Assembly (NCBI GenBank): GCA_013152275.1
Contig: JAADGS010000037.1
Coordinates: forward strand, 1 to 45,539
DNA: 45,539 nucleotides
Direction of reading: 5' to 3'
Source of the DNA: Actinomycetota bacterium
Lineage (GTDB): Bacteria; Actinomycetota; Acidimicrobiia; Spongiisociales; UBA4744
A program made the position numbers and the translations under genes. Every line of letters starts with the position of its first letter. Positions within the stretch are counted from its first letter, which is position 1. The notes beneath the pieces are model-generated. The model saw only the letters and a program-made list of their open reading frames with translations, was not told the DNA's origin and did no database searches. Of this stretch, positions 8,690 to 45,539 are shown piece after piece.

Positions 8690-9169
8690 TCAGTCGGCCT
8701 CGAACGGACGGATTCCTGCGACGACGACCGTGAAGACGCCGCCGGGTGCAGCATAGGAGACCTCGTCACCGACGGCGGCGCCGATGAGTGCCGTACCGAG
8801 AGGACCACCGGGAGAAGCGAGGAATACTCCAGGAATCTTGTTCTCCGGTGTTGCGATGAGGTACTCGGTTTCGTCGCCGTCTTCATCGACGACCGTGACG
8901 AGTGAGCCGATCTCCACCTTGTCGGTGGCTCCGACTTCACGAACCTCGGCGTGTTCGATGATCTGGCGGACCTTGCGGATCCGGGCTTCCATCAGCCCCT
9001 GCTCGTTTTTGGCGGCGTCATAGTCTGCGTTCTCTCTGATATCCCCGTGAGAGCGCGCCTCGGCGATGCGCTCTGAAGCGCTGAGGCGGCCTTCGCCTTC
9101 GAGGTAGTTCAGTTCGTCGAGGAGCTTGCGGTGAGCCGCCGGCGTGAGCCAGATTGTTTCGCCCGTCAT
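8690..9169 (-). CDS. greA: Transcription elongation factor GreA
   Basis: WLT..A..KL..EL, IAEARSHGDIRENADYDAAK.EQ..EARI, SP.GPLG.AL.G; start trimmed to ATG 9169. Confidence 0.95.
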   Translation of the reverse strand: MTGETIWLTPAAHRKLLDELNYLEGEGRLSASERIAEARSHGDIRENADYDAAKNEQGLMEARIRKVRQIIEHAEVREVGATDKVEIGSLVTVVDEDGDETEYLIATPENKIPGVFLASPGGPLGTALIGAAVGDEVSYAAPGGVFTVVVAGIRPFEAD

Positions 9170-9203
9170 GGCCGGGCAGCATAGCGAGATGCAATCGGTA
9201 CCG

Positions 9204-10085
9204 ATGAAGCGCTCTGCGCTTTGGTTTGCGCTCTCCGCCGCGCTGTTGTGGGGCGTGAGTGGAACCGTTGCGGCGGATGTGTTCAACAAAGTCCCTCCTC
9301 CTCGTGTCGCGGAGGTGCGGGCTCTCGTGGCGGCACTGTTCCTCGTTCCGTACGCCGGCTTGCGAGGGCAGCTCCGAACCCGTGGCAACGGATTGTGGCT
9401 GGTCCTGTTCGGACTCACTCTGGCAACGGTGCATGTCACCTACTACTGGGCCATCGAGGGCTTGGGTGTCGGCCCCGGTGTGACCGTGCAGTTCCTGGCC
9501 CCGATCCTCGTGCTTTTCTGGATGCGGTTCGCGGAACGTCGTCACGTTGCCGTCGGCGTCTGGATCGCGGCCGTTGGGGCCGTTGCCGGCCTGGTGATGG
9601 TGACGCGTGCCTGGGAGGCCATCTCGGTCGACGCGTGGGCACTTGGAGCCGGGCTTGCATCCGCACTCACGTTCGCGACCTACCTGGTGATGGGGGAACG
9701 GCTCGGGCGCCGCATCGGCGCGGTCACGATCCTCACGTACGGATTCGTCGTCGCGGCCGTATTCTGGCTCGTGGTCCAGCCGCTATGGACATTCCCGCGG
9801 GCGCTGGACGCGAAGGACATCTCCGAGCTCGTCTGGGTTGGCCTCGGAGGCACGATGGTGCCGTTTCTGTTGGAGATGGCGGCGCTTCGAAGAGCTGCCG
9901 CAGCCTTGGTGGGCCTGGTTGCGACGGTCGAGCCGGTCATCGCCGCCATGACGGCGTGGATATTCCTGAGCCAGGCCTTGACGCTCGTGCAGATCGTCGG
10001 CGGAGTCGCCGTGCTCGGTGCGGTCCTCCTGGTTCAGCGCCGGGGAGTTGCAGAGATCGAGGCTCCGATGCAACCGGGACGATGA
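9204..10085 (+). CDS. EamA/DMT family transporter
   Basis: About 10 TM helices, two EamA repeats (LWGVSG, QFLAPI, EPVIA, QIVGG); start 9189 or 9204. Confidence 0.9.
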   Translation: MKRSALWFALSAALLWGVSGTVAADVFNKVPPPRVAEVRALVAALFLVPYAGLRGQLRTRGNGLWLVLFGLTLATVHVTYYWAIEGLGVGPGVTVQFLAPILVLFWMRFAERRHVAVGVWIAAVGAVAGLVMVTRAWEAISVDAWALGAGLASALTFATYLVMGERLGRRIGAVTILTYGFVVAAVFWLVVQPLWTFPRALDAKDISELVWVGLGGTMVPFLLEMAALRRAAAALVGLVATVEPVIAAMTAWIFLSQALTLVQIVGGVAVLGAVLLVQRRGVAEIEAPMQPGR

Positions 10086-10096
10086 ATGCCGGCGAC

Positions 10097-10200
10097 CAGT
10101 GTTCGGTCATCAGTCTTCAGTTGTCGGCAAGACACGCGGCCACGCGTAGTTCGTATCTGATGACCGGCTGTTGACCGACGGCGGTCTGCCAGACTGGCGG
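10097..10200. repeat. Heptamer-based imperfect palindrome upstream of selD
   Basis: CAGTGTT CGGTCAT CAGTCTT CAGTTGT; CGGTCATCAG (10104-10113) is the reverse complement of CTGATGACCG (10157-10166). Confidence 0.55.
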
Positions 10201-10216
10201 TCGAAGGAGGTGACAC

Positions 10217-11266
10217 GTGGCGAAGAAGCTGACTGCGTTCTCGCACGGCAGCGGCTGAGCATGCAAGCTCGGTCCTGACGAGCTGGCGCAGGTCCTGCGC
10301 CGACTGCACAATCACCCGGTGACCTTCCATCCGGACCTGGTCGTCGGGTTGCACCTGGCCGACGACGCCGGCGTGTTCCGCATGCCCGGTGGCACGCTGC
10401 TGCTGCAGACGGTCGACTACTTCACCCCCGTCGTCGATGACGCCTTCGACTGGGGGCGCATCGCCGCGTCCAACGCGCTGTCCGACATCTACGCGATGGG
10501 CGGTACTCCGCTCACCGCCATGCAGCTCATCGGCTGGCCTCGTGGAGCGATCTCCTTCGATGTCCTCGACGACGTGATCGCCGGTGGGGTCGAGATCCTC
10601 CAGCAGGCAGGGTGTGTCCTCATCGGTGGGCATTCGGTCGACGATCGCGAGCCCAAGTACGGGTTCGCGGTGAGCGGCACCGTCGAAGAGAAGAACCTCG
10701 TCATGAATCGGGGCGCCCAACCCGGTGATGTGCTCGTGCTGACCAAGCCGTTGGGGACCGGCGTGATCGCCACCGCACTCAAGGCCGGCCGCGCTCCAGA
10801 GGAGGTCGTCTCCAGAGCCGTCACCACGATGGTGACACTCAACGAAGGCGCTGCGAAGGCGATGAACCGTGTTGGCGTCCATGCGGGCACCGACGTGACC
10901 GGCTTCGGGCTGCTGGGACACCTTTCCGAGATGCTCACGGCGTCGGAGGTGGGGGCAAGGATCCGCGTCGCCGATATCCCGCTGATGGACGGGCTGCGTT
11001 CGTTGGTCGAGGCGGGCTTGTTCCCCGGCGGGAGTGCCAGAAACCTCGAGGCGGTGCGCCCGACCCTCGTGGCCGAAGGGGTCGAGGATACGAGCATCCG
11101 GATCCTCGCGGATGCCCAGACGAGCGGCGGTCTGCTCATGGCGGTTGCACCCGAGCGTCTCGATGCGATGCTCGATGCACTCGTCGAGGAGCGCACACCG
11201 GCGGCGGCCGTCATCGGGGAGATCATCGAGGACGACTGCGCGTCGATCGTGGTGATCGGGTCTTGA
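10217..11266 (+). CDS. selD: Selenide, water dikinase (selenophosphate synthetase), selenocysteine-containing; UGA 10256-10258 = Sec14
   Basis: AAGGAGGT RBS at 10204-10211, GTG 10217, MAKKLTAFSHGSG-U-ACKLGPDEL in frame with ORF 10319..11266 (DDAGV, QTVDYFTP, SNALSDIYAMGG, GGHS, TDVTGFGLLGH, DAQTSGGLL). Confidence 0.95.
10259..10301 (+). promoter_or_regulatory. Candidate bacterial SECIS element
   Basis: Two hairpins directly 3' of the UGA: AGCTCG-GTCCTGA-CGAGCT (10266-10284) and GGCGCAG-GTC-CTGCGCC (10285-10301), both with G-starting loops. Confidence 0.6.
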
Positions 11267-12453
11267 ATCGAGAATCGTTGCAGGGGCATCAGGAGTGGGT
11301 GCTGGCGACCGCCGTGGGGCTGGTGATGACGGGTGCGAGTCTCGTCGCGCCGATCCTGCCCCTCTACGCTCTCGAGTTCGGTGTCAGCTACACGGCGGCC
11401 GGGGCTCTCATCACCGGATTCGCCTTGGCAAGGCTCTCCTTCGACATGATCGGAGGTGTGGCCGGCGACCGGTTCGGCGCCCGCCGTGTCACGATGAGCG
11501 GTGCGCTGCTCATCGCAGTCGCCGGTGTCACTGCGGCGCTGGCACCCTCGTATTGGGTGTTGCTCCTTTCACGCTTCATCGAAGGCGTCGGATCGGCGTT
11601 GTTCACCACGGCGGCGTTCCAGTTCCTCGTCCAAATCACCGAGCGATCCCGGCTCGGTCGGGCAACCGCGCTCTTCCAGACGGGAATGCTGGTTGGCTTT
11701 GCGATCGGTCCGTTCGCCGGCGGTTACCTTGCTCAACTCGGCGACTTCAGGACGCCGTTCTGGGCATACGCGGCGTTCGGAGTGCTGGTCGCCGTCATCT
11801 CCAGGCTCTTGATCACCGATGTCCCCTCTTCTGGCCGGACGATCGGCGAGGTGTTTCGCGCCGCGGGAAGCCTCCTGCGCAAGCGTGAGATTCGTGTCCT
11901 GGCGTTGGTCGCCTTCGCGCTGTTCGTCATGCGGTCGGGAGCGCGGATCACCCTGTTCCCTCTCTACGGCAACAAGGTCATCGGACTGGACCCGGCTTCG
12001 ATCGGAACCATCCTCAGTGTGTCGGCCGTCGCCAACCTGTTCGTCGTCAACTTCGTGGGGCGAATGGTCGACAGGGTCGGGAGGAAACCGGTTGCAGTCT
12101 GGGGTTTGGTGGCGTCCGCGTTCGCGACGGCGGCATATGGCGCGTTCGGCACGTTCACTTCTCTGATGATCGTTTCCGCGGTGTTCGGGGTCGCCTCGGG
12201 TGTAGCTTCGATTCCGCCGCCGACGATGGTCGGTGACCTCGCTCCCGAAGGGCTCGAAGGATCCGCGGTCGGCTTGTACAAGATGGCAGGCGACCTTGGG
12301 TTTGTCGTCGGTCCTCTCATGGTTGGGGCGATCGCCGACGCGGGAGCGTTCACCACCGGTTTCGTGGTCAGTGGCGCGATACTTCTCGTTGCCGCCGGTG
12401 CGATGCTCACCATCGGAGAGACGGGAAGAAAGCTCGGAAAGGCTTCGTCGTGA
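11263..12453 (+). CDS. MFS transporter (DHA1/TetA-like)
   Basis: About 12 TMs, motif A (G.AGDRFGARR; GRMVDRVGRK), GP.AGG; TTG start overlaps the selD stop (TTGA). Confidence 0.9.
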   Translation: MNRESLQGHQEWVLATAVGLVMTGASLVAPILPLYALEFGVSYTAAGALITGFALARLSFDMIGGVAGDRFGARRVTMSGALLIAVAGVTAALAPSYWVLLLSRFIEGVGSALFTTAAFQFLVQITERSRLGRATALFQTGMLVGFAIGPFAGGYLAQLGDFRTPFWAYAAFGVLVAVISRLLITDVPSSGRTIGEVFRAAGSLLRKREIRVLALVAFALFVMRSGARITLFPLYGNKVIGLDPASIGTILSVSAVANLFVVNFVGRMVDRVGRKPVAVWGLVASAFATAAYGAFGTFTSLMIVSAVFGVASGVASIPPPTMVGDLAPEGLEGSAVGLYKMAGDLGFVVGPLMVGAIADAGAFTTGFVVSGAILLVAAGAMLTIGETGRKLGKASS

Positions 12454-12863
12454 CGAGACTCGACAAGATCGCCGGGGCGCTGTCGATCGGAAGATTGCAG
12501 CGGCACATCTTCCTCTGTGCGCAGCAGGCCACGCCTCGCTGCTCGACCTACGAAGAGAGCGTCGAAGTATGGCGCTTTCTGAAGAAGCGGCTCAAGGATC
12601 TCGACCTCGCGAGCGCCCCCGCTCCATGGCGTGGTGACTTGGGCGTCGAACCCGATACTCCCCGAGGCACCGGCACGGTGCTGCGCTCGAAAGTCGACTG
12701 TTTTCGCATCTGCGAGCAAGGGCCGATCGCCGTCGTCTACCCGGAGGGGACGTGGTATCGGTCCGTGACGGTCGAGGTGATGGACCGCATCGTCACCGAG
12801 CATCTGATCGGGGGAGTTCCTGTGGAGGAGTTCGTGTTTGCGACCGATCGACTGGGAGCGTGA
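12450..12863 (+). CDS. Thioredoxin-like [2Fe-2S] ferredoxin
   Basis: RHIFLC...PRC...RSKVDCFRICEQGPIAVVYPEGTWY...EHLIGG; GTGA overlap with the MFS gene. Confidence 0.92.
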   Translation: MTRLDKIAGALSIGRLQRHIFLCAQQATPRCSTYEESVEVWRFLKKRLKDLDLASAPAPWRGDLGVEPDTPRGTGTVLRSKVDCFRICEQGPIAVVYPEGTWYRSVTVEVMDRIVTEHLIGGVPVEEFVFATDRLGA

Positions 12864-12864
12864 C

Positions 12865-13761
12865 GTGAAGCTGTTGAGAAGCCTTGGTCTTGGATGGCTG
12901 GCGTGGCGCCTGCTCGGTCCCGAAATGCCCCCGCGCTACACCGTGCCACAGCGGCACCCCCTGCTCCTGCCGGGCCGGACGGTGTTCGTGGGCGATCGGG
13001 AGGTGTTCGTTCGGGAGGCGGGACCGGCCGATGCCCAGGTGCTGGTGTTGCTGCACGGGCTCGGGCTCGATTCGATGCTGGCGTGGTACCGGCTCATCCC
13101 GTTACTCGCCGAGCGATTTCGTATTGTGTCCATCGACCTGCATGGCGCCGGCAAGACCGACAAGGGGCGCGACCCCTTCGAGATTGCCGACATGGCGGAT
13201 CAGGTCGCGGGCGCGTTGGGCGCGCTCGGCATCGACCAGGCAACGGTGGCCGGCTACTCGATGGGTGGTGCCGTCGCTCAGGAACTCGCTCACCGGCATC
13301 CACACCTCGTCGAACGGTTGGTGCTCATCGCCACGCTCTCCTATCACCCGCCGGCGTGGCGTTGGGGACGCACGGTCATAGGGCTGGTCGGTCGGGCGCT
13401 CGAGCGGGTCAGCAGGGTCGAGGTGTCGTGGGTCTGGTACCGGTATCTGCTGTGGGTCGGTGCCGTCGACCGGATCGGTGAACGTTGGCTGTGGGAGACA
13501 CGGATGAACCGTGATCCGGAGGTGCAGTACCGTTCGATGTTCGCGCTGTTGCGCTTCGACAGCCGGCGGTGGCTGGCAGGGCTGAACGTTCCCGCGCTGG
13601 TGATCATCCCGCAGTCGGACCAGCTGGTACTTCCGGCATGGCAGCGGGAGATGGCGGCACTCCTGCGGGATTCGACGGTGGTTGAGGTGGCCGGCGCTCG
13701 TCATGAGCTGCCGATGACGCATCCCGATCAGGTCGCCGAGGCGGTCGAGGAGTTCCGGTGA
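12865..13761 (+). CDS. Alpha/beta fold hydrolase
   Basis: LLHGLG, DLHGAG, GYSMGG nucleophile elbow, SDQLV, ARHE; GTG 1 nt after the ferredoxin stop. Confidence 0.9.
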   Translation: MKLLRSLGLGWLAWRLLGPEMPPRYTVPQRHPLLLPGRTVFVGDREVFVREAGPADAQVLVLLHGLGLDSMLAWYRLIPLLAERFRIVSIDLHGAGKTDKGRDPFEIADMADQVAGALGALGIDQATVAGYSMGGAVAQELAHRHPHLVERLVLIATLSYHPPAWRWGRTVIGLVGRALERVSRVEVSWVWYRYLLWVGAVDRIGERWLWETRMNRDPEVQYRSMFALLRFDSRRWLAGLNVPALVIIPQSDQLVLPAWQREMAALLRDSTVVEVAGARHELPMTHPDQVAEAVEEFR

Positions 13762-45497: not shown

Positions 45498-45539
45498 TCC
45501 TTCGCCGGGGGGCCCTGGTGGGCGTTGGTGGAGGCGGAC

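Follow-up and report, generated by a model that had tools for sequence, protein, structure and literature searches.

The selD gene at 10217–11266 (plus strand) is full-length, and the UGA codon at its catalytic position very probably specifies selenocysteine (Sec) through the standard SelA, SelB and tRNA-Sec, with a GGUCY-loop hairpin as the likely guide. The window, 45,539 nucleotides, is the whole contig C87 of a genome of 3.07 Mb and 64% GC that is rated 100% complete (G000). For comparison we used 40 relatives that share its genus, family or order.

Reading frame and catalytic residue of SelD

A single frame holds the start codon GTG 10217, the internal TGA at 10256–10258 and the stop codon TGA at 11264–11266. 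With TGA read as U, it gives a selenophosphate synthetase of 349 residues with the motif G-U14-A-C-K17 near the N-terminus. The start is preceded by a Shine-Dalgarno site, AAGGAGGTG, at 10204–10212 (plus strand), and an AGGAGG-type site is found at the same start in many relatives. The mechanical ORF list begins selD at GTG 10319, and inspection of the sequence before this codon found no motif resembling a ribosome-binding site. Against TIGR00476 (selD) the read-through protein scores 388 bits (cut-off 125) over model positions 1–309, while the ORF from 10319 scores 348 bits and covers positions 35–309 only. Against PRK00943 the read-through protein scores 354 (cut-off 299). Aligned with homologues, U14-A-C-K17 falls on C17-G-C-K20 of PDB entry 3U0O, with U14 on Cys17 and K17 on Lys20. 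The original prediction had described a strong ribosome-binding site and an in-frame GTG start, an ORF call that loses the catalytic N-terminus, and a UGA at the catalytic residue; the frame, the profile coverage and the alignment agree with all three.

Both hallmarks of the SelD family, the whole-protein score and the N-terminal (C/U)xxK loop, are present. Membership in this family suggests that the protein would carry out ATP-dependent synthesis of selenophosphate. UxxK is a catalogued SelD motif, and Sec-containing SelD is listed as experimentally verified in Table 1 of PMC13188914. Behind the last TGA (11264–11266) the frame has a non-coding score, and the scan for GGUYY hairpins described below found no GGUCY hairpin there. 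In annotation terms, gene callers drop 34 codons of selD together with the catalytic residue.

The stop codon overlaps the TTG start of the downstream gene, which encodes an MFS transporter at 11263–12453 (plus strand; MFS families below cut-off) and overlaps selD by 4 nt. Upstream, a DMT/EamA-type transporter is encoded at 9144–10085 (plus strand; TIGR00950 below cut-off). The DMT/EamA transporter adjoins selD in 16 of 28 loci of relatives and the MFS transporter in 17 of 28. Altogether, selD sits within a run of DMT/EamA, MFS, ferredoxin-like and alpha/beta-hydrolase genes at 9144–13761. The three closest named SelD records, at 76–77% identity, are labelled "uncultured Acidimicrobiia bacterium", and the three best-matching sequencing runs are hydrothermal-vent metagenomes of one study; no RNA run was among the matches listed, which says nothing for or against expression.

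Conservation of the UGA codon

SelD is matched in 38 of the 40 relatives. A TGA lies within the match in 34 of these 38 (33 of 37 when the unpublished genome G034 is left aside), and the other four matches have no stop. Identity among the relatives with TGA ranges from 51 to 90%. At the level of codons, including G000 and G034, the catalytic position is TGA in 28 of 30 loci and TGC in two, all at the same position. An in-frame UGA that aligns with a Cys of homologues and is conserved, the pattern by which bacterial selenoproteins are recognised, is thus present in selD. Among 80 actinobacterial SelD loci, the codon is TGC or TGT in 76, TGA in three and unreadable in one; the three TGA loci appear to be close relatives of this lineage that are already counted above, so they are not independent.

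The two TGC forms belong to G025 and G036, where hairpin 2 (see below) is decayed and both selB and tRNA-Sec are kept. These SelD genes, and a DUF411 gene of G405 with TGT and a weakened hairpin, are probable Sec-to-Cys reversions within Sec-using lineages.

Selenocysteine machinery and the tRNA-Sec locus

SelA and SelB are encoded next to each other on contig C83. SelA scores 445 bits against a cut-off of 268. SelB exceeds its own cut-off and has both the SelB beta-barrel and the winged-helix domains. Across the 41 genomes of the order sample, which includes G000 and the unpublished G034, selB is above cut-off in 38; tRNA-Sec is above cut-off in 32 of the 40 relatives (G034 included). Recoding of UGA as Sec, together with genes for SelA, SelB and tRNA-Sec, had been anticipated from the window alone, and the conserved TGA and the two genes bear this out. 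The same proposal called Sec use a patchily distributed trait, which does not describe this lineage.

A whole tRNA-Sec was not found in the assembly with Rfam (150 of 536 candidates scored), with ARAGORN at default and lowered thresholds, or with motif scans. A second "tRNA-Ser(tga)" call of ARAGORN on contig C63 was rejected as a poorly paired false call. BLAST with the genes of relatives located the two halves, and the gene is missing as a whole because a contig break cuts it. The last 10 nt followed by ACCA lie at the very end of the window (45526–45539, minus strand), and at its end contig C5 carries two full copies and part of a third copy of the 5' 34 nt, repeated about every 67 nt. The window's fragment has A before CCA where relatives have G, so it may be a duplicated 3' part instead of the original end of the gene. 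The tandem copies on C5 (108290–108438, period about 67 nt) each consist of a leader and the 5' 34 nt. Degenerate copies also occur in relatives: a 3' half downstream of the gene in G002 and a 5' copy upstream of it in G014. In addition, a repeat of about 42–69 nt near the G002 locus matches at least 12 contigs of G000, often near contig ends, and is possibly a REP-like element.

G002, a member of this genus, has an intact tRNA-Sec of 79.9 bits between the same two flanks. With this locus as reference, we compared contigs from the sequencing runs over the gap. Record 9 of run X2 holds a whole tRNA-Sec, with three differences from G002, joined to a 17-nt stretch specific to the C5 flank. Record 5 of run X1 covers tRNA-Sec positions 5–91 at a depth of 30.6, against 33 for the flank; judged by depth, its two differences fall in the variable arm, and none of the differences listed is at the anticodon. 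The tandem repeat is also seen in run contigs, as loose ends in X1 and as a joint in X3, which argues that it is not only an assembler artefact. An intact tRNA-Sec with anticodon UCA is therefore present at the level of the population and not in the assembly, where the gene is split by the contig break; the run contigs may derive from another strain.

Profiles for SelU/YbbB, YqeB and YqeC (TIGR03167, TIGR03309, TIGR03172) found no match in the genome. Thus SelD appears to be dedicated to Sec synthesis, supplying a minimum of four selenoproteins: SelD itself, FdhA, an AhpD-like protein and a CopG/DUF411 protein.

RNA signal downstream of the selD UGA

Two hairpins follow the UGA. Hairpin 1 (10266–10284, plus strand; −8.4 kcal/mol) has 6 bp and a variable 7-nt loop 13 nt past the UGA. 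Hairpin 2 (10285–10301, plus strand; −11.3 kcal/mol) pairs GGCGCA with UGCGCC around the loop GGUCC, 32 nt past the UGA. Folding of 10256–10310 gives z = −1.38, with 18 of 200 shuffles equally stable, and folding of 10265–10315 gives z = −2.56, with two of 200. Hairpin stability on its own is weak evidence; it is the conservation across relatives that sets the hairpins above chance.

Constraint at the RNA level was measured on 27 UGA-bearing sequences, a set that excludes G034 and the two Cys homologues. In codons +1 to +14 after the UGA, the summed synonymous diversity is 2.44 against 7.48 expected, a ratio of 0.33; in 153 windows elsewhere the minimum ratio is 0.78 and the median 1.01. Mild constraint is also seen in the upstream control (2.91 against 4.02), so that the resampling p-value overstates the significance, and the related genomes are also not independent. 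In these 27 sequences the loop of hairpin 2 is GGUCU in 14, GGUCC in 10 and another sequence in three. Its stem is 98.7% paired, and 3–4 of its 7 pairs are broken in both Cys homologues. No compensatory change was found in hairpin 2, whose stem barely varies and is constrained by the protein sequence as well.

According to Figure 2 of PMC13188914, a bacterial SECIS element (bSECIS) has a loop of 3–9 nt with G in the first two loop positions, a stem of 4–16 bp, a distance of 16–37 nt from the UGA and a minimum free energy of −7.5 or lower. Hairpin 2 falls within all of these limits, with 6–7 bp, the loop GGUCC or GUC, 32–33 nt and −11.3 kcal/mol, and it is likely the site for SelB. Hairpin 1 lies too close to the UGA, at 13 nt. 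Stem-loops directly 3' of the UGA had been part of the original prediction; both exist, and only the second fits the published spacing. Hairpin 1 is conserved and possibly acts as a spacer.

In the pathway described in PMC13188914, the complex of SelB, GTP and Sec-tRNA would dock on hairpin 2 with the UGA positioned in the A site. The docked complex would outcompete RF2 at this codon and deliver Sec. SelD with Sec14 would then convert selenide and ATP into selenophosphate, and SelA would use selenophosphate to charge tRNA-Sec, so SelD would feed its own synthesis.

Alternative readings of the UGA and its signal

The SelB element could also be hairpin 1, or a three-way junction closed by an outer helix (10262–10266 with 10304–10308), rather than hairpin 2 alone; Sec would be inserted in either case, and such an assignment is compatible with the decoding proposed here. 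In G000 hairpin 1 carries GGUCC as well. Moreover, 98.5% of its cells are paired, and it shows the only compensatory change, one pair that is changed on both sides in three of 26 distinct sequences. The outer helix is 86.9% paired. However, the loop of hairpin 1 comes in 8 variants among the 27 sequences, and its 13 nt from the UGA fall below the range of 16–37 nt. The RNAalifold consensus lacks the outer helix, in which no compensatory change was seen, and covariation does not support the three-way junction. Hairpin 1 and the junction would also probably be melted by the ribosome. We regard this assignment as rather unlikely and keep hairpin 2 as the probable bSECIS.

Other readings concern the decoding itself. 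A nonsense mutation or a sequencing error, with selD being a pseudogene or a Cys enzyme, would agree with a single TGA in a frame that is otherwise open, and the reads were examined at the tRNA locus rather than at 10256–10258. It is refuted by the orthologues, which carry TGA at the same position in nearly all loci, and RNA-level constraint lies right behind the codon; its probability is negligible. No better is the case for genome-wide reassignment of UGA to Trp or Gly, or for insertion of Cys by a route other than Sec. Homologues do have Cys here, and Cys insertion would likewise yield an active enzyme. Yet TGA is the commonest stop of the genome, for which a variant code is rejected: it terminates 646 of 883 long coding-like ORFs, behind which the frames score as non-coding (median −0.26). 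RF2 is encoded, the sole tRNA-Trp has the anticodon CCA, and every recovered UGA takes the place of a Cys in a redox or metal motif. A further reading holds that the strain has lost a working tRNA-Sec through the tandem repeats of its 5' half, which would leave selD and the other UGA genes as relics of recent origin. It draws on the assembly, which has only the copies of the 5' 34 nt on C5 and the final 10 nt in the window, and on the recurrence of the 5'-half repeat in run contigs X1 and X3. Against it stand the whole tRNA on this genome's own flank in X2 and the X1 record at the organism's depth. The contig of G001 breaks at the same tRNA-Sec locus too, and selA, selB and four UGA genes show no other damage. 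Such a loss is very improbable, and we infer that Sec is incorporated into SelD by the standard machinery.

Comparison with known Sec-containing SelD

With known bacterial Sec-SelD (TIGR00476; PDB entries 3U0O, 2YYE and 2ZAU), the protein shares the family score, the catalytic position, the UxxK motif, the bSECIS and the background of selA, selB and selC. It differs only in its host lineage, and the conserved region after the UGA has two hairpins. PMC1794560 and PMC13188914 place SelD among the two selenoproteins with the widest distribution in bacteria, and the former already lists Sec-SelD for the actinobacterium Rubrobacter; PMC5029168 provides background on the subject only. The selD finding is thus correct but ordinary, a well-known arrangement that gene callers shorten.

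A closer case is Ca. Actinomarina, also of the Acidimicrobiia. A preprint (bioRxiv 10.64898/2026.04.03.716425) reports selA, selB, selC and selD, with SelD as a predicted selenoprotein, no YbbB/SelU and about five selenoproteins per genome. Both cases have the same class, the same machinery and no SelU. Unlike Ca. Actinomarina, the present genome has 3.1 Mb and 64% GC and matches hydrothermal-vent runs, and a bSECIS is delimited here, whereas the preprint defines none. Our literature search on selenocysteine or selenoproteins together with Acidimicrobiia gave this preprint as the sole relevant match.

Other selenoproteins of the genome

At least three more UGA genes, for FdhA, an AhpD-like protein and a DUF411 protein, are cut by ORF calling with table 11, in line with the expectation of further mis-annotated selenoproteins. 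FdhA (C9:34485–36380, plus strand) has its UGA in a U-H motif and scores 670 bits against TIGR01591 (cut-off 666). Of 34 matches, 29 contain a TGA and the other five are paralogues at 44–47% identity. The frame begins at about profile position 50, and the frames of relatives are similar in length; this Sec-FdhA appears to be a form without the N-terminal Fe-S segment. Directly upstream of fdhA lies a gene for a class V aminotransferase, similar to cysteine desulfurase or Sec lyase and below all cut-offs. The AhpD-like protein (C30:14434–15006, minus strand) has a CxxU motif and passes TIGR01926, and a TGA is found in all 20 matches, including G034 and a more distant paralogue group. Both proteins belong to families listed in the 2026 selenoprotein table in PMC13188914.

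The same loop, GGUCU, is located 18 nt past the UGA in all 12 fdhA loci and in 10 of the 11 AhpD-like loci that were read. The GGUCY loop of selD is 32 nt from its UGA, against 18 nt in these two genes of the same genome. A scan for GGUYY hairpins, which retained 105 of 35,737 candidates, placed SelD, the AhpD-like protein and FdhA on top; since the motif was drawn from these three, the ranking is partly circular. The scan missed the DUF411 gene, so four selenoproteins are a minimum. Ab initio read-through scans were noisy and returned mostly gene junctions. None of the 12 AhpC-TSA matches of G000 has an internal stop. Peroxiredoxin-like AhpC-TSA genes with one in-frame TGA are observed in many relatives (G003, G005, G006, G008, G021–G023 and others), from which it follows that selenoproteomes differ within the order.

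UGA in the CxCC motif of a CopG/DUF411 lipoprotein

Outside the window, at C45:4255–4764 (minus strand), a gene for a CopG/DUF411 lipoprotein reads G-U-G-C-C: a conserved UGA stands in for the first Cys in CxCC, and a hairpin follows downstream. Within the order sample, TGA occupies this codon in 12 of 13 matches, and the thirteenth is a broken copy. Among 401 genomes of the class it is found in 18 of 21 matches. In 25 loci examined at the codon level, 22 were readable, with TGA in 21 and TGT in one; the TGT form, with its weakened hairpin, is that of G405. Outside the class, a sample of 400 genomes of the phylum gave six matches, all without a stop. All five TGA-bearing DUF411 genomes examined from another order have selB. 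The hairpin, about 20 nt past the UGA, is 95% paired; in G000 its energy is −6.6 kcal/mol, weaker than the model threshold, and −8.0 in a wider window.

The protein aligns with PDB entry 6WIS (E = 7e-23) over the CxCC and SCHT...EGH motifs, and its U falls on the first Cys of CGCC in 6WIS. This structure is CopG, in which a tetranuclear Cu cluster is bound through CxCC, as described in PMC7558416 and PMC8456105. The C45 protein is like CopG/DUF411 (PF04214; 6WIS/6WJE) in both motifs; unlike it, the codon of the first Cys is TGA and the N-terminus looks like a lipoprotein signal. No copper-resistance gene was found among the 53 neighbouring ORFs scanned. Of the 120 closest database proteins, 68 are truncated records in which the CxCC motif is missing.

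DUF411/PF04214 is absent from the table of 119 families in PMC13188914. A literature search for DUF411 with selenocysteine found nothing, and the supplements of the Actinomarina preprint and the deep-Sep lists may name it; the matches listed for CopG with selenoprotein were all animal or clinical studies.

Downstream, at C45:175–4076 (minus strand), are genes for a DUF1573 protein, a CCG-domain protein, an FAD-linked oxidase, a small Fe-S protein and a membrane protein. All are Cys forms, and the membrane protein has several lone Cys residues. DUF1573 is a known selenoprotein family elsewhere.

Implications

We think it likely that this lineage combines a Sec trait that is nearly universal in its order with an uncatalogued U-G-C-C CopG/DUF411 lipoprotein and a two-hairpin selD signal whose SelB loop is unusually distant. 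Use of Sec, reported in 2026 for Ca. Actinomarina, is hereby extended to another widespread, uncultured order of the Acidimicrobiia, given selB in nearly all of the genomes sampled. The occurrence of one loop at 18 and at 32 nt offers natural SECIS variants that are usable for testing spacing rules. If the CopG reading is true, selenium would be placed at a Cys of the copper-cluster motif in an exported protein. Sec-CopG is a more interesting lead than selD itself and, if confirmed, would represent a natural exchange of Se for S in a copper-cluster motif.
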